A stretch of 64,000 bases of DNA from an uncultured Conexibacteraceae bacterium (GTDB lineage Bacteria; Actinomycetota; Thermoleophilia; Solirubrobacterales; 70-9). Location: contig CAYXFL010000001.1 of NCBI GenBank assembly GCA_964464285.1, positions 46,897 to 110,896 of the forward strand, in the 5' to 3' direction. Below are positions 613 through 55,126 of this stretch, piece by piece. The notes beneath the pieces were generated by a model. The model saw only the letters and a list, made by a program, of their open reading frames with translations, made no database searches and had not been told where the DNA came from. Position numbers and translations under genes: made by a program. Numbering within the stretch: the stretch's first letter is position 1; each line of letters starts with the position of its first letter.

Positions 613-822
613 TCAGACGAAGGGGCGGCGCTGCGGTTCGGCAAGACGGTCGAGCACAGCCTCGAGGTCCTCGGCGACCAGCCCTGTCTCGGGATCGGCG
701 CGGATCTCGACCCGCGTCCCGAAGCCCTTCTCGGCCATCGTCACCTCGACGCCCTCGACCGCGGAGATCAGCTCCGCCAGCTCGGGCTCTGACTTCATCA
801 GCGTCCTCGATGCCTCGATCAT
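613..822 (-). CDS. small acidic hypothetical protein (69 aa)
   Basis: ORF track entry. GC3-rich codons. No family recognised. The start could also be the internal ATG (MKSEPEL...). Confidence 0.45.
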   Translation of the reverse strand: MIEASRTLMKSEPELAELISAVEGVEVTMAEKGFGTRVEIRADPETGLVAEDLEAVLDRLAEPQRRPFV

Positions 823-911
823 CAGCGCCGCTTTCTGCCGCCAGCGCCCCGTTCCTCCCGCAACCTCCAGGTGAAACGGACCGTTCAGGCGCCCCCGGGG
901 GGAGAGAAAGG

Positions 912-963
912 GCGCGCTTCCGACATTGACCCCAGTCAGGTGTGGTCAATGTCGGAAGCGCGC
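912..963. repeat. long hairpin element, copy 1 (20-bp stem, 12-nt loop); core 919-956
   Basis: GCGCGCTTCCGACATTGACC (912-931) pairs perfectly with GGTCAATGTCGGAAGCGCGC (944-963). The 38-nt core 919-956 is the exact reverse complement of 1820-1857. Confidence 0.9.
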
Positions 964-1830
964 TCAGCTCAAACGTGGAGATTGGCAGCGAGTCAGCACG
1001 GGGTGCTGGCGCGGCGGCAGCTCCTGGCGCTGGGGTTCAGCCAGAGCTCAATCGAGCACCGGGTGCGATACGGGCGCCTCCACCCAGTGATGCGTGGGAT
1101 CTACGCGGTCGGCTGGCCGCATCTGCACCGCCAGCGGCGCTGGGCAGCCGCGATCCTGGCCGGAGCGGCGGGCGAGCAGGGTACGCGGTTCCCCACCCAG
1201 CCTTACCTGGGGACAGGCGCCGCGCTCAGCCACCGCAGCGCCGCTGCGCTGTGGGGCATCGGATCGGAGGTGCCCGGGCGAATCGACCTGACTGTCAAGC
1301 GGCGCAACGCCCCAACGCTCGCCGGCCTCCACGTCCGGGCGCGGCCGTCCCTCTCCCCTCTCGCGATCCAGCTTCACGACGACCTCCCCGTCATCAGCCC
1401 CATCCAGACCCTGATCGACCTCGCCACCGAACTCACCCCGATCGAAACCGAGCGCGCCGTCAACGACGCCGACAAGCGCGACCTGATCGACCCCGAGGCG
1501 CTCCGCCTCGCCCTCGGCGATCACGCCGGCGAGCCCGGCGTCCGCCCCCTCCGCGAGATCCTCGACCGCCTCACCTTCCGCCTCTCCGACTCCGACCTGG
1601 AGATCTACTTCCGCCCGATCGCCACTGCCGCCGGCCTCCCCAGCCCGCAGAGCAAACAGTGGGTCAACGGCTTCGAAGTCGACTTCTTCTGGCCCGAGCT
1701 CGGCCTGGTGGTCGAGACCGACGGCCTCCGCTACCACCGCACCCCCTCGGCCCAGAAGCGCGACACCCGCCGCGTCCGCTCCGACCTAGAGCGCGCCGCC
1801 GCGCTGCTCCAGAAGCGCATCCGACATTGA
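949..1830 (+). CDS. DUF559 / Vsr-fold endonuclease-like protein with AbiEi-like N-terminal domain, possibly C-terminally truncated
   Basis: The N-terminus ...HGVLARRQLLALGFSQSSIEHRVRYGRLHPVMRGIYAV resembles the AbiEi_4-type antitoxin-like domain. The C-terminus VDFFWPELGLVVETDGLRYHRTPSAQKRDTRR matches the DUF559 core. The ORF track starts at 871, but I prefer ATG 949. The ATG and the TGA (1828-1830) both lie inside the flanking hairpin repeats. Confidence 0.7.
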   Translation: MSEARSAQTWRLAASQHGVLARRQLLALGFSQSSIEHRVRYGRLHPVMRGIYAVGWPHLHRQRRWAAAILAGAAGEQGTRFPTQPYLGTGAALSHRSAAALWGIGSEVPGRIDLTVKRRNAPTLAGLHVRARPSLSPLAIQLHDDLPVISPIQTLIDLATELTPIETERAVNDADKRDLIDPEALRLALGDHAGEPGVRPLREILDRLTFRLSDSDLEIYFRPIATAAGLPSPQSKQWVNGFEVDFFWPELGLVVETDGLRYHRTPSAQKRDTRRVRSDLERAAALLQKRIRH

Positions 1831-1865
1831 CCACACCTGACTGGGGTCAATGTCGGATGCGCTTC
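1812..1865. repeat. long hairpin element, copy 2 (21-bp stem, 12-nt loop), inverted relative to copy 1; probable bidirectional terminator
   Basis: GAAGCGCATCCGACATTGACC (1812-1832) pairs with GGTCAATGTCGGATGCGCTTC (1845-1865). The loop ACACCTGACTGG is the reverse complement of the copy 1 loop. It sits between the convergent stops at 1830 and 1875. Confidence 0.9.
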
Positions 1866-1874
1866 GGGCGCCGC

Positions 1875-3518
1875 TTAGAAGAACGCGCCGCCCTTGTATT
1901 CGCCGAAGACGTCGCGCATCGCTCCGCAGACCTCGCCGATCGAGGCGTCGGCGGCGAGGGCGGCGCGGATCGGGTGCAGGAGGTTGCCGTCGCCCTGGGC
2001 GACGTCCTTGAGGGCCTGCAGCTTCGCGGTGACGGCGGCCTGGTCGCGGGACTCCTTGAAGGCCTTGAGACGGGCGAGCTGGCGCTGCTCGGCCTCGGGG
2101 TCGACCTTGAGGATGTCGACGTCGTCGACCTGGTCGGTGACGTACTTGTTGACGCCGACGATGATGTCCTGGCCGGAGCGGTAGCGCTCGTGGTAGCTGT
2201 GCGCCGACTCCTCGATCTCGCGCTGCATGAACTCGAGCGCCTCGACCGAGCCGCCGAGCTCTTCGACCTTGTCCATCAGCTCCCAGGCGCGCTCTTCGAT
2301 CTCGTCGGTCAGCGACTCGATGAAGTAGGAGCCGGCGAAGGGGTCGACGGTGTCGGCGACGCCGGACTCGTGGGCCAGCACCTGCTGGGTGCGCAGGGCG
2401 ATCCGGGCGGAGCGCTCGGTCGGCAGGGCGAGCGCCTCGTCGAAGCCGTTGGTGTGCAGCGACTGGGTGCCGCCGGCGACCGCGGCGAAGCCCTGCAGGG
2501 CGACGCGGATGATGTTGACCTCCGGCTGCTGGGCCTGGAGGGTCACCCCGCCGGTCTGCGTGTGGAAGCGGATCTGCTGCGATTTCGGGTTCTCCGCCCC
2601 GAACCGCTCGCCGACGATCTTCGCCCACATCCGCCGCACGGCGCGGAACTTGGCGACCTCCTGGAAGACGTTGTTGTGGCAGTTGAAGAAGAAGGCCAGC
2701 CGGGGCGCGAACTCGTCGATCTTGAGGCCGCGCTCGAGCGCCGCTTCGACGTAGGCGATCGCGTTGGAGAGGGTGAAGGCGACCTCCTGCACGGCCGAGC
2801 AGCCCTTCTCGCGGATGTGGTACCCGGAGATCGAGATCGTGTTCCATTTCGGCACGTTCTCGCGGCAGTACTCGAACAGGTCGGTGGTCAGCCGCATCGT
2901 CGGCACCGGCGGGAAGATGTAGTTGCCGCGCGCCATGTACTCCTTCAGCACGTCGTTCTGGACCGTGCCGCGCAGCTTCTGTGAGGGCACCCCCTGCTCC
3001 TCGCCGACCAGCTCGTAGAGCAGCAGCAGGATCGCGGCGGGCGCGTTGATCGTCATCGAGGTGGAGACGCCGTCGAGCGGGATCTGGTCGAAGCAGATCC
3101 GCATGTCCTCGATCGTGTCGATCGGGACGCCGGTGCGGCCGACCTCGCCGTGGCAGAGCGGATCGTCGGAGTCGCGGCCGAGCTGGGTCGGCAGGTCGAA
3201 GGCCATCGAGAGCCCGGTCGAGCCGTGCTCGATCAGGTAGCGGTAGCGCTCGTTGGTGTCCTCGGGCGAGGCGAAGCCGGCGTACTGGCGCATCGTCCAG
3301 AGCCGGTCCCGGTACATGCCCTCGTGGATCCCGCGCGTGAACGGTGGCGCGCCGGGAACGCCGAGCCGCTCCTCGAGTCCGGGGGCGACGTCGTCGGCGT
3401 CGTAGAGCTGGTCGATCTCGATTCCGGAGTCGGTGAAGACGCGATCGTCGTCGGGACCGACCAGCGGGGCGATCGTGCGGTGCGCCGGCTCGGACGCGGT
3501 GCGGTCAGACGCAGCCAT
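1875..3518 (-). CDS. methylmalonyl-CoA mutase family, catalytic (large) subunit without B12-binding domain
   Basis: Typical acyl-CoA mutase TIM-barrel sequence ([53 protein letters not shown]...). It ends without a DxHxxG cobalamin-binding domain. Start taken at MAASDRT (3518); the ORF extends to 3566. Confidence 0.9.
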
Positions 3519-3697
3519 CGGCAGCAGGATATTGAGGTTCGACGCCCGGCCGCTTCCCGAGCGCAAAACCGGAACCTTGGCTGGCCAGCCGGGTTGTCAC
3601 TGGTAGCGACCGGGACTACGCTCGGTCGTAATCGACTTTGCCGCGAGTCGCTGAAGCGCTGTTCGCAGGGGGCGGCAAAAAAACGGAGGAACCCCCC

Positions 3698-28817: not shown

Positions 28818-28856
28818 CGCGGTCGCCGCGGGACGGGGGTGCTTCGAGGGCTCTTT

Positions 28857-28906
28857 CGCGCTCGCGACATTGAGGCCCCCAGAGGGGCCCTAATGTCGCG
28901 AGCGCG
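28857..28906. repeat. imperfect 23-bp-stem hairpin sharing a CGACATTGA core with the 912/1812 elements; likely bidirectional terminator
   Basis: CGCGCTCGCGACATTGAGGCCCC - CAGA - GGGGCCCTAATGTCGCGAGCGCG, with two mismatched positions. It lies between convergent stops at 28817 and 28940. Confidence 0.75.
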
Positions 28907-28939
28907 ATTTGGGACGCCCTCTCCCCGGCCTCGGACGGC

Positions 28940-53357: not shown

Positions 53358-54935
53358 ATGCTATTAGCTACCTTGAAACCGGTGATTCGGATCGCGACGG
53401 CAACCGCCGTCCTACTCGCGCTGGTGGGGACCGGTAGCGCAGGGGCGGCCTCCCTGCAGCAGGTCGGCGTCTTCGACCAGCCGATCCACGTCACCTCCGC
53501 CCCCACCGACCCCGACCGCCTCTTCGTCAGCGAGCGCCGCGGCAAGGTGAAGGAAGTCCGCGGCGGCGTGGTCACCCTGCTCGCCGACCTCAGCGGAGCG
53601 GTCGGCTGCTGCGCCGGCGAGACCGGGCTGCTCTCGATCGCGATCGCCCCCGACTTCGCCACCAGCGGCCGCTTCTACGCCTTCTACACCGGCTTCGAAG
53701 GGGAGATCCGGGTCTCGGAACTGACCGCCGGGCCGGGCGGCGCCCCGCTCTCCTCGCTGCGCCCGGTGCTGCAGATCCCCCACCCCGGCCAGAACAACCA
53801 CTACGGCGGCCAGCTCCAGTTCGGGCCCGAAGGCCTGCTCTACGTCTCCACCGGCGACGGCGGCGGCCAGAACGACGAAGGCCACAACGCCCAGAACCCG
53901 GAAAGCCTGCTCGGCAAGATCCTGCGGATCGACCCGCGGCCGGCCGGCCTCGCCCCCTACTCGATCCCGGCCGGCAACCCGTTCGCCGGCGTGCCCACGT
54001 ACGACCCCGCGATCTGGAGCCTCGGCCTGCGCAACCCCTACCGCTTCTCCTTCGACCGCGAAGGCAGCGCGATCGCGATCGGCGACGTCGGCCAGGACGG
54101 CCGCGAGGAGGTCGACTACGCGCCCGGCCCCGCCGCCGGCAAGGGCGCCAACTACGGCTGGAACTGCATCGAGGGCATCCTGCCCGGCCCGGCGACCGAC
54201 CCCCGCTGCGCCGAGGTGCCGCCCGGCGGCTTCACCCCGCCGCTCTTCGACTACGGCCACAACGAAGCGGGGATCGGATCGCGCTGCGCGATCGTCGGCG
54301 GCTACGTGGTCCGCGACCGCGCCCTCGGCAGCCTCTTCGGCCGCTACCTCTACGGCGACTACTGCGGCGAAGACCTGCGCTCCTTCGACCCGGCGAACCC
54401 GCGCGGCACCGACCGCGCCGAGTACGTCGGGCTCGGTCGCCAGCTGACCTCGTTCGGCGAGGACTCCTGCGGCCGCCTCTACACCGCCCAGGCCGGCGAA
54501 GCCTCCCAGGGCGGCGGGCGCGTCGCGATGCTGGTCGGTGAAAACGGCGCCAACGCCTGCAAAGAGGCGGCGCCGCGCAGCTTCTCGATGGTCGGGATCA
54601 AGGCCCAGAGCCGCAAGCTGAAGAAGCGCACGCGCGCCTCGATCACCGCCTGGGTCTCCCCCTGCGCCGGCCGCCGCGGCGAGCCGGTGAAGCTGATGCG
54701 CGGCCGCACCCACCTCGGCACCCGCCGCCTCGACCGCGCCTGCACCGTCCGCTTCCGCCCCCGGATCACCCGCCGCGCCAACTTCCGCGCGACGATCGCC
54801 GAAGACGCCAACTACGTCGCCGCCACCTCACGCAAGCTCAGCGTCGTGATCCGCCACGCCAAGGGCGCCAAGAAGCCCCGCAAGCACTCCCGCGGCACGC
54901 GGCGCTGGGCCATGGCCCGGCCCTCGATGGGTTAA
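53358..54935 (+). CDS. secreted PQQ-dependent (soluble aldose/sorbosone) sugar dehydrogenase-like beta-propeller with basic C-terminal extension
   Basis: A signal peptide is followed by GLLSIAIAPDF, NHYGGQLQFGPEGLLYVSTGDGG, GLRNPYRFSFD and GDVGQDGREEV. About 130 extra C-terminal residues are rich in R/K. Confidence 0.75.
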   Translation: MLLATLKPVIRIATATAVLLALVGTGSAGAASLQQVGVFDQPIHVTSAPTDPDRLFVSERRGKVKEVRGGVVTLLADLSGAVGCCAGETGLLSIAIAPDFATSGRFYAFYTGFEGEIRVSELTAGPGGAPLSSLRPVLQIPHPGQNNHYGGQLQFGPEGLLYVSTGDGGGQNDEGHNAQNPESLLGKILRIDPRPAGLAPYSIPAGNPFAGVPTYDPAIWSLGLRNPYRFSFDREGSAIAIGDVGQDGREEVDYAPGPAAGKGANYGWNCIEGILPGPATDPRCAEVPPGGFTPPLFDYGHNEAGIGSRCAIVGGYVVRDRALGSLFGRYLYGDYCGEDLRSFDPANPRGTDRAEYVGLGRQLTSFGEDSCGRLYTAQAGEASQGGGRVAMLVGENGANACKEAAPRSFSMVGIKAQSRKLKKRTRASITAWVSPCAGRRGEPVKLMRGRTHLGTRRLDRACTVRFRPRITRRANFRATIAEDANYVAATSRKLSVVIRHAKGAKKPRKHSRGTRRWAMARPSMG

Positions 54936-54951
54936 GGGCGCTATAGCGCCC
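54936..54951 (+). terminator. stem-loop immediately after the stop codon (no T-tract)
   Basis: GGGCGC-TATA-GCGCCC is a perfect palindrome starting 1 nt after the TAA at 54933-54935. Confidence 0.4.
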
Positions 54952-54999
54952 GCAAGGCATCGAGCGCAAAATTCCAACGGACTTCGGAGCGCTTCGTTG

Positions 55000-55126
55000 G
55001 GAGGGGTCGGTGGTGTCCTTCGTACGAGCGGCGTTAGCGATTCGCCCAACTGCGCATCTCGGACGGGAGGGTTGCGATCCAGGCGAATTCGCCCAGCGAA
55101 GGTAGAAGGACACCACCGACCCCTCC
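55000..55126. repeat. 127-bp element bounded by perfect 22-bp inverted repeats (MITE-like or structured RNA candidate)
   Basis: GGAGGGGTCGGTGGTGTCCTTC (55000-55021) is the exact reverse complement of 55105-55126. The 83-nt interior contains the direct repeat ATTCGCCCA (55040 and 55086 regions). Confidence 0.7.

Follow-up and report, generated by a model that had tools for sequence, protein, structure and literature searches.

A fusion of an AbiEi antitoxin homolog with a Vsr-fold nuclease in a Conexibacteraceae genome, and the two palindromes that are its candidate cognate sites

Why should a gene for a nuclease-like protein begin inside one hairpin and end inside an inverted copy of the same hairpin? 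This configuration is found at positions 912 to 1,865 of a 64,000-nucleotide stretch, here called the window, of contig CAYXFL010000001.1 from an uncultured Conexibacteraceae bacterium (GenBank assembly GCA_964464285.1). The original prediction took the arrangement either for a small selfish or non-autonomous cassette or for a family of repetitive extragenic palindromic (REP)-like sequences that bounds, and perhaps truncated, the gene. From the comparisons presented below we consider it reasonably probable that both hairpins are cognate palindromic sites of the enclosed protein, the 5' copy serving as its operator and the 3' copy as a second site and/or a terminator, and that the whole belongs to an accessory cassette. 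Genomes, loci and contigs or paralogs are designated by G, L and C, respectively, G000 being the genome of the window.

The two hairpins and the protein encoded between them

The two 38-nucleotide copies (919-956 on the forward strand and 1820-1857 on the reverse strand) are identical, that is, exact reverse complements of each other, and no such match appeared in 100 shuffles; a repeat search extended the arms to 48 nt (914-961 and 1815-1862), with 96% complementarity. Either copy is part of a hairpin of 50-60 nt, with 23-nt arms at 912-934/941-963 (96%) in hairpin 1 and 33-nt arms at 1803-1835/1842-1874 (88%) in hairpin 2, and when folded as single-stranded DNA they reach -28.7 kcal/mol (z -9.0) and -30.4 kcal/mol (z -11.0), respectively, relative to dinucleotide shuffles. 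Shuffles, repeat search and folding thus confirm the anatomy first described, and so does the position of the ATG (949) and the TGA (1828-1830) of the open reading frame (ORF) inside the repeats, the former within the 3' arm of hairpin 1 and the latter within the 5' arm of hairpin 2. To this we add an in-frame GTG (940) in the loop of hairpin 1, which agrees with the rule seen across the family that the start codon lies at the centre of the palindrome. In the assembly (3.1 Mb, 133 contigs), the exact 38-mer occurs only in these two copies. As regards the role of bidirectional terminators that had been proposed for the hairpins, neither is followed by a T-tract and a scan detected no terminator-like site at 912-963 or 1812-1865, although an actinobacterial terminator may lack a T-tract; a scan of window positions 700-2000 with Rfam 15 gave only sub-threshold matches to generic hairpins (miRNA precursors, 6C).

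The protein encoded between the hairpins has two recognizable parts. PADLOC models of AbiEi match residues 7-209 of the window protein (E 1e-26) and residues 10-209 of a full-length relative (E 3e-31), whereas in Pfam the AbiEi_4 model leaves the window protein just under the cutoff of 25 bits (23.9 bits) and gives 27-30 bits to full-length relatives; AbiEi_1 recognizes the middle of one paralog (C32) with 22.8 bits against a cutoff of 22.2. The nuclease domain DUF559 (PF04480) fails in the window protein, at 13.4 bits for a cutoff of 20.6, and passes in full-length relatives (22-38 bits), while MTES_1575 matches the window protein weakly (14-16 bits). We then turned to the fold of the full-length ortholog at locus L087, modelled with AlphaFold (AF2) from a 35-sequence alignment at a mean predicted local distance difference test score (pLDDT) of 88.7. 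Foldseek aligned residues 1-215 of the model with AbiEi (6y8q; probability 1.0, template modelling (TM) score 0.64, 215 columns) and the C-terminal ~96 residues with the catalytic part of I-Bth0305I, a homing endonuclease (3r3p; TM 0.79, root-mean-square deviation 3.1), as well as with the DUF559 protein NGO0050 (3hrl; TM 0.63) and Vsr (1cw0). From the PADLOC, Pfam and fold matches together it follows that the encoded protein joins an AbiEi antitoxin homolog to a nuclease of the Vsr fold. In a survey of PD-(D/E)XK enzymes, Vsr, DUF559, and DUF2726 fall into one group with a homing endonuclease of a group I intron (PMC3424549). The AbiEi homology of the N-terminal two-thirds of the protein had escaped the original prediction, as had the fact that hairpin 1 is the 5' leader palindrome of a whole family.

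No gene for an AbiEii toxin (DUF1814 nucleotidyltransferase) lies beside the ORF, whose neighbours are a 69-aa gene, p69, and a mutase gene, nor beside the syntenic orthologs; no NCBIfam model matches the protein; a protein-level search of a plasmid collection gave no match; and nothing resembling a Y1 (HUH) transposase was found, Pfam, PADLOC and the fold search returning AbiEi and DUF559 only.

The score of the window protein falls below the DUF559 threshold because of a deletion. Compared with seven relatives, it has a 25-residue in-frame internal gap, the absent part (...RRDRAHILAGMTPLRFTHYEIRYEP...) corresponding to residues 274-298 of L087; at the DNA level, this is a deletion of 75 nt near 1768-1773 with a CGCCGCG microhomology at the junction. 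According to the L087 model, the lost segment comprises part of helix 266-281, the last core strand (285-290) and a short helix (291-296), and with them seven invariant residues (R275, H279, G283, L287, R288, F289, and H291). E243, D245, E256, D258, H263, and H279, candidates for the active site, are invariant in 35 relatives; the window protein keeps the motifs EVDF and ETDGLRYH and is devoid of R275, H279, and H291. With 25 residues of its nuclease core lost, the window copy is probably nuclease-dead, and it may still bind DNA. The protein had been thought to stop early, without its terminal segment and perhaps cut short by the hairpin. In fact, its tail, VRSDLERAAALLQKRIRH, is homologous to those of its relatives, the loss is internal, and full-length orthologs at the same locus also end within hairpin 2 (with ...LLERRIRY before the stop in G004 and ...LLQKRIRH in L088); in some orthologs, the stop codon is in the loop of hairpin 2 and in another frame (...SDIDHT).

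A start-centred palindrome in the leaders of a multi-copy family

The window genome carries about 20 paralogs of the ORF, with 31-55% identity; 6-15 copies are found in each of 18 congeners searched, and sister families carry the family too. On a broader scale, it is present in 39 of 151 sampled Actinomycetota genomes, often in 5-20 copies, and fusions of AbiEi_4 and DUF559 amount to more than 6,000 proteins at E ≤ 1e-10, with generic annotation only. In the literature, we found no paper linking DUF559 to AbiEi, or DUF559 proteins to hairpin repeats. One of the paralogs (G000:C39:16853-17467), without the N-terminal ~86 residues, ends beside a tRNA gene on the opposite strand and may be a remnant at a tRNA-linked site.

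What these genes share at their 5' ends is a purine box followed by a palindrome. A GGGGGAGA-like box lies upstream of 16 of the 18 paralog leaders of the window genome (none was found at C3 and C54) and of most relatives, and the palindrome, located ~5-8 nt downstream, has arms of 15-24 bp in the leaders examined, a sequence that varies among paralogs and, at its centre, an in-frame ATG or GTG, replaced by ATA in two copies. When close paralogs are compared, their homology starts exactly at the box. The same layout was found in 29 loci of other genomes, including those of other families, and in about 70 of 78 loci from public metagenome-assembled genomes (MAGs), where it spans -35 to +12 relative to the ATG; the distance from the first G of the box to the start codon in the loop is a constant 36-39 nt in 43 leaders. 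In a gap-free alignment of 53 loop-centred palindromes, to which only sequences with a palindrome were admitted, although these make up ~90% of the loci, 82.4% of the cells are paired, compared with 58.8% after shuffling (none of 500 shuffles reached the observed value) and 33-43% with slid partner columns, and compensatory changes occur in 20 of the 22 pairs. Even in distant Actinomycetota families, inverted repeats at the start (score ≥10) were detected in 5 of 29 leader windows versus none of 87 intragenic control windows, often with non-palindromic spacers of 13-19 nt.

The geometry of these palindromes is comparable to that of the AbiEi operators. AbiEi binds two 23-bp inverted repeats 3 bp apart and Rv2827c binds pairs of 23-bp repeats 13 bp apart; in both cases the repeats overlap the promoter of the protein's own gene and the protein represses itself, and neither binds the repeats of the other (PMC7319586). 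In the palindromes described here, arms of 20-24 bp are 4-12 nt apart. By analogy, the palindrome is most likely the operator of the encoded AbiEi-like module, which is the simplest reading of its structure. The covariation between arms would then arise because one protein reads both of them, and the differences between the palindromes of paralogs would keep the paralogs from cross-reacting. The mRNA is probably leaderless, given where the start codon lies in the palindrome. With a transcription start at that ATG or GTG, the box would be at about -39 to -31 and a conserved TT at about -11/-10, a promoter-like layout in which the operator has the start site in its middle.

Some genes of the family have a second palindrome at the other end. 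The leader palindrome is repeated at the 3' end in 16 of 78 loci, usually over the stop codon (-35 to +34 relative to it), and the palindromes concerned are of the window type and of at least four others (L109, L147, L149, and L152). Hairpin 2 is kept in the syntenic orthologs of G004, G037, G039, L087, L088, and others. The loop of the 3' copy is inverted in nine loci and direct in six. Orthologs of the window gene show either state, so the inversion seen in the window is not conserved; hairpin loops are known to undergo small inversions between their arms. The arms within each hairpin stay strictly matched as the sequence drifts, and the 5' and 3' copies share a core of 13-16 nt, each having its own conserved outer stem, so we make no claim of concerted evolution between them; identity of arms is 0.775 within genomes versus 0.746 between genomes, and all four arms changed together only in L084 and L085. 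In other subfamilies, an unrelated 3' hairpin also contains the stop codon. One such subfamily (3' ends of the G000:C32:22740-22800 and C25 paralogs; L037) has a conserved 3' hairpin, TGACCCGCACCCC...GGGGTGCGGGTCA, with the TGA stop in its 5' arm, which is unrelated to the 5' palindrome of the same subfamily.

An accessory cassette and dispersed palindromes

The gene lies between p69 and the gene for a mutase catalytic subunit (Table 1). The unit had been placed directly 3' of the mutase gene; the adjacency is correct, and the two genes are in fact convergent, their 3' ends meeting, so that the mutase gene is not upstream. The p69 protein is acidic, has no Pfam or NCBIfam match, and turned up, at 74-90% identity and always beside the mutase gene, in 35 of the 41 genomes searched in the genus. 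With p69 as the anchor, we surveyed the interval in these 41 genomes. It is occupied by the gene with both hairpins, or by remnants of it, in eight (G000, G004, G037, G039, G044, G006, G017, and G032), and it is truly empty, with 8-18 nt between the flanking genes, in G009, G015, G016, and G033, which are the empty sites whose existence the original prediction had left to be checked. About 11 genomes have a single ORF-less palindrome of the same architecture and different sequence, with compensatory changes between genomes; for the solo hairpin of G007, a pattern search found no second copy, that is, no cognate gene, in that genome. A few genomes have other inserts: in L064 (G036) and L069 (G008), a ~700-nt insert, non-homologous to the DUF559 gene, lies at the junction right after ...ACCGTTCAG. 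A small palindromic repeat, GGACGCAGGGAGCCCGAATAGCAGCGCTATTCGGGCGACTGAGGACG, lies in or beside the interval in L057 (G040) and L059 (G006), and the site looks like one where small insertions are frequent.

The cassette measures ~0.95 kb, from the box right after ...ACCGTTCAG to ~10 nt before the stop codon of the mutase gene, and the homology between occupied and empty sites stops just before the box. A tree of the flanks, built from 243 aa only and poorly resolved with four well-supported branches, requires at least three changes of the occupied state on supported branches, the occupied G004, for example, being sister to G002 with its solo hairpin. At least 18 loci of public MAGs carry the cassette at this same site, with proteins that are only 55-72% identical, which indicates that it has long been resident there. 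The unit from box to hairpin 2 also occurs in other contexts (L085, L112, and L024, the latter in G007). L084 and L085 are homologous from the box to ~6 nt past hairpin 2, and the homolog of the L085 site in G070 (L171) has neither the cassette nor a cognate hairpin; the flanks of the empty and occupied versions of that site are ~80% identical, so the junction is not resolved. No target-site duplication was seen when occupied and empty junctions were compared. The stretch from box to hairpin 2 is a discrete accessory cassette, present in some congeners and absent from others. Of the cassette first proposed, the discrete unit that comes, goes and appears in other contexts has stood, while ends of the terminal-inverted-repeat type have not: the loop of the 3' copy is inverted or direct in relatives, and no duplication is seen.

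Palindromes without an ORF are also scattered in the window genome. Besides the two exact 38-mers, there are ~8 related palindromes of the window type (two close and about six diverged solos), and the covariance model R1, built from the leaders, finds ~37 sites of the broader class, with hairpin 1 as its top match (59.4 bits): five paralog leaders, hairpin 2, 24 intergenic solos, and seven possibly inside ORFs. According to a crude ORF call based on third-position GC content (GC3), 14 of the 24 intergenic solos lie at most 20 nt from the 3' end of a gene, for example after L1, OsmC, and YdeI-like genes. When assigned to the leader types of particular paralogs, solos number 24 for C88, 12 for C79, four for C34, and three for C1_11547. 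Of the REP-like family of the original prediction, it holds that related palindromes occupy intergenic sites unrelated to DUF559 genes, mostly directly after stop codons as REP sequences or terminators do; the truncating role given to it is not supported. In sister families with the protein, R1 matches number 34, 2, 2, 2, and 0; the highest value corresponds to G026 (family f4), an outlier in its ratio of genes to palindromes with two strong matches to the protein query. Apart from R1, a scan for hairpins was informative only at 15 or more paired bases, its loose two-tier version being swamped by GC-rich coding hairpins, and the reversed genome was unusable as its control, for reversal preserves palindromes.

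Two high-copy repeats of the same genome were recorded along with the solos. Rep-A is a hairpin repeat of ~60 nt, CCGGGCCAGGAGCCACACC...GGTGTGGCTCCTGGCCCGG, in ~46 copies (e.g., G000:C110:1051-1120 and C5:25408-25470), with none in the window region studied; a purine box often comes next, and after this a palindrome that belongs to one of at least five leader types of the paralogs, the three forming a ~190-nt mosaic with sharp ends. Rep-B resembles a miniature inverted-repeat transposable element (MITE), with ~130 nt, 22-bp terminal inverted repeats (TIRs) GGGAGGGGTCGGTGGTGTCCTTC... and ~61 copies (e.g., window 55000-55126 and G000:C5:25635-25865); contigs often end inside it, and its copy in the window comes directly after a weak palindrome (54916-54971). 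Neither repeat was ever found within 500 nt of a paralog, and for this reason we rejected a MITE-like origin of the mosaics from internally deleted cassettes.

Table 1. Coordinates in the window of the cassette, its flanking genes and ORF-less palindromes.
Feature	Position	Strand	Remarks
Purine box GGGGGGAGAGAAAGGG	897..912	+	Conservation of the cassette starts here; possible -35 region of a leaderless promoter
Hairpin 1	912..963	+	Two ~23-bp arms and a 6-12-nt centre with GTG 940 and ATG 949; proposed operator/recognition site of the AbiEi-like module
ORF	940..1830	+	GTG 940 or ATG 949 to TGA 1828-1830; AbiEi-like module fused to a damaged DUF559/Vsr-like nuclease domain
AbiEi-antitoxin-like region (winged helix-turn-helix AbiEi_4 and AbiEi C-terminal domain)	976..1575	+	Residues ~10-209
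Remaining DUF559/Vsr-like nuclease core (EVDFFWP...VVETDGLRYH...RDTRR)	1663..1779	+	Weak Pfam matches only for the window protein
Junction of the in-frame 75-nt (25-aa) deletion in the nuclease core	1768..1773	+	Alignment with seven relatives
Hairpin 2	1812..1865	+	Second copy of the palindrome, loop inverted relative to hairpin 1; overlaps the stop codon; ends 10 nt from the convergent mutase stop
p69, 69-aa gene	613..822	-	Left flank of the insertion site; synteny anchor
Methylmalonyl-CoA mutase-type catalytic subunit gene	1875..3566	-	Right flank, convergent with the cassette gene; PF01642 E 2e-216, TIGR00641
ORF-less palindrome	28854..28909	-	R1 59.0 bits; 89% identical to the leader of the truncated paralog G000:C1:11245-11559; DNA-fold z -9.65
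Weaker ORF-less palindrome	54916..54971	+	R1 33.3 bits; fold z only -1.6; adjoins the MITE Rep-B with 22-bp TIRs

Operator, terminator or mobile element

In the explanation that we prefer, two molecules of the protein would bind the two ~23-bp arms of the 5' copy and repress their own gene as AbiEi does, the 5' copy and the purine box forming the standard promoter-operator region of the gene family. The 3' copy would most likely bind the protein at a second place and/or form a hairpin at which transcripts coming from either side terminate. An ancestor would have gained the cassette between p69 and the mutase gene, and it would later have been lost or replaced in many congeners and occasionally copied elsewhere. 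Some observations weigh against this explanation. The solo hairpins of the p69-mutase interval keep their pairing in genomes where no cognate gene was found, and this conservation suggests that solos can function without the protein, for example as terminators. The high-copy solo types were amplified within the ~190-nt mosaic of Rep-A hairpin, box-like motif and palindrome, so the number of solos need not reflect the action of the protein. R1 has 63, 39, and 23 matches in three genomes with the protein and none in three genomes of the same order without it, but these negatives are few and related, coming from only two families, and R1 is tuned to the genus (G020 has the protein and 0 matches), so the co-occurrence supports the link without proving it. 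Furthermore, the box is unlike known -35 elements, no sigma-70-type promoter was found, and a dimeric repressor needs no near-central palindromy, so that a function of the nucleic acid as a hairpin may act too.

Such a function could reside in the transcript, where hairpin 1 would hide the first codons and throttle the translation of a potentially toxic nuclease, as in IS200 and type I toxin mRNAs, with hairpin 2 as a terminator. The stems would be very stable as RNA (-35 to -55 kcal/mol), the start codon lies in the apical loop of nearly all members, and the purine box, next to the base of the stem, might act as a Shine-Dalgarno sequence. However, the box is 36-39 nt from the start codon, too distant for that role, the arms of distant relatives have an unpaired spacer of 13-19 nt, typical of protein sites, and no Rfam family matches. 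The mismatches themselves go in the opposite direction from that expected of a sense-RNA hairpin: in 47 gene-linked leaders, those compatible with G·U pairing in the sense RNA (G·T/T·G) number 26 versus 56 for A·C/C·A, and the lack of a wobble bias fits both arms being read as duplex DNA by the same protein. We thus regard control at the RNA level as very improbable. Little more credit can be given to the idea that the palindromes are generic REP-like sequences or terminators functionally unrelated to the protein, the gene merely being located between two members that stabilize or terminate transcripts. It draws on the ORF-less intergenic sites, at least 24 of them and 14 within 20 nt of a gene 3' end by the crude GC3-based call, on hairpin 2 being placed between two convergent stop codons, on the solos with preserved pairing at the same spot of cassette-free genomes, and on the richness of the genome in other small repeats. 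It leaves unexplained, in addition to the lack of a T-tract, why each paralog, and even those at 30% identity in other families, should have a palindrome of its own with the start codon exactly in the middle and the conserved box always equally far from that codon, why the palindromes match the geometry of the AbiEi operators, and why the class is absent from related genomes without the protein.

A third alternative extends the explanation by operator and second site rather than excluding it: the cassette would mobilize itself or home, in the manner of REP sequences and their associated tyrosine transposases (RAYTs), the nuclease recognizing the palindrome via the AbiEi module, nicking or cutting, and driving the copying of the gene or of the palindrome. 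The flanking copies would be the ends of the element and the dispersed solos its products or targets. We find this rather unlikely, though a good number of our observations are in its favour, such as the bracketing of the gene by its own palindrome in several subfamilies, the ~20 paralogs in the window genome and 6-15 in every congener searched, the scattered solos matching the leader types of specific paralogs, the sharp boundaries of the unit at different loci, the polymorphic p69-mutase site, the homing endonuclease as the closest solved fold of the nuclease domain, and the co-occurrence of palindromes and protein family. On the other side, the target-site duplication was not seen, the loop orientation is not conserved, and most paralogs are without a repeat of their own palindrome at the 3' end; amplification of the high-copy solos took place in larger mosaics, never beside a paralog; ordinary homologous recombination in the conserved flanks can explain the patchy occupancy; and the cassette is old at its locus, as the divergence of its orthologs tells. 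Homing into a cognate solo hairpin, in particular, is not supported, for the empty homolog of the L085 site has no such hairpin. We can only offer as a doubtful, if attractive, possibility that the fusion genes and their cognate ~50-bp palindromes constitute a previously unrecognized selfish element of Actinomycetota, analogous to REP/RAYT systems or to free-standing homing endonucleases. In such an element, a PD-(D/E)XK-type nuclease aimed by the winged-helix module would nick its own palindrome, copying the cassette and/or seeding solos at the 3' ends of genes, and the same palindrome would double as the operator of the gene.

Comparison with known systems shows where the cassette departs from each of them. 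With the AbiEi of the type IV system AbiE (AbiEi of S. agalactiae, Rv2827c of M. tuberculosis), it shares the two-domain fold and sequence, and the paired ~23-bp inverted repeats with a short spacer at its own 5' end, specific in sequence to each homolog (PMC7319586); it differs from that system in having no AbiEii (DUF1814) toxin gene and a Vsr/DUF559 nuclease domain fused in cis instead, in its ~20 genes per genome, in the centring of the palindrome on the start codon, in the second palindrome often found at the stop codon, and in the ORF-less copies dispersed in the genome. As in REP/RAYT systems, a single-copy-type gene is bracketed by inverted hairpin palindromes, more copies are scattered in intergenic regions, mostly at gene 3' ends, and different gene copies pair with different palindrome types. 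Yet the protein is no Y1/HUH transposase, no transposition chemistry is known for its fold acting alone, the palindromes have no conserved GTAG-type tetranucleotide, the copies per palindrome type are few (2-24), and the 3' copy is present at only some genes. The C-terminal domain has the fold of I-Bth0305I (Vsr-fold EDxHD; 3r3p, TM 0.79) and the E..D..H signature (VVETDGLRYH), and the gene is an optional and occasionally relocated intergenic cassette, like free-standing homing endonuclease genes; unlike them, it is borne neither by an intron nor by an intein, its putative recognition palindrome is intact on both sides rather than disrupted, and the empty site examined has no palindrome. Bacterial interspersed mosaic and MITE-like repeats come close in that ORF-less modules of box and palindrome are embedded in high-copy repeats of the Rep-A/Rep-B type in the same genome, but the unit in the window carries a gene, adjoins neither Rep-A nor Rep-B, and has palindromes of the leader class of the gene family; and unlike a transposon or MITE with TIRs, it shows neither a fixed repeat orientation nor a target-site duplication. 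The logic is most likely a known one, that of a repressor of the AbiEi type and its palindromic operator, with a nuclease fused to the repressor in this case. What is unusual is the operator centred on the start, the second copy at the stop codon, the REP-like solos, the behaviour as a cassette, and the multi-copy family.

For a family of fusion proteins that is very large and has no assigned function, the palindrome centred on the start codon, its recurrence at stop codons and gene ends, and its AbiEi-like geometry provide a specific candidate DNA ligand for binding and cleavage and make the family experimentally tractable. The results also hint at a way in which a repressor module of the antitoxin type may have come to direct a nuclease to its target. 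Should the nuclease act on the palindromes, REP-like repeat families and the mobility of gene cassettes in high-GC bacteria would have a new route open to them; otherwise, operators or terminators would still account for a conspicuous class of palindromes between genes.

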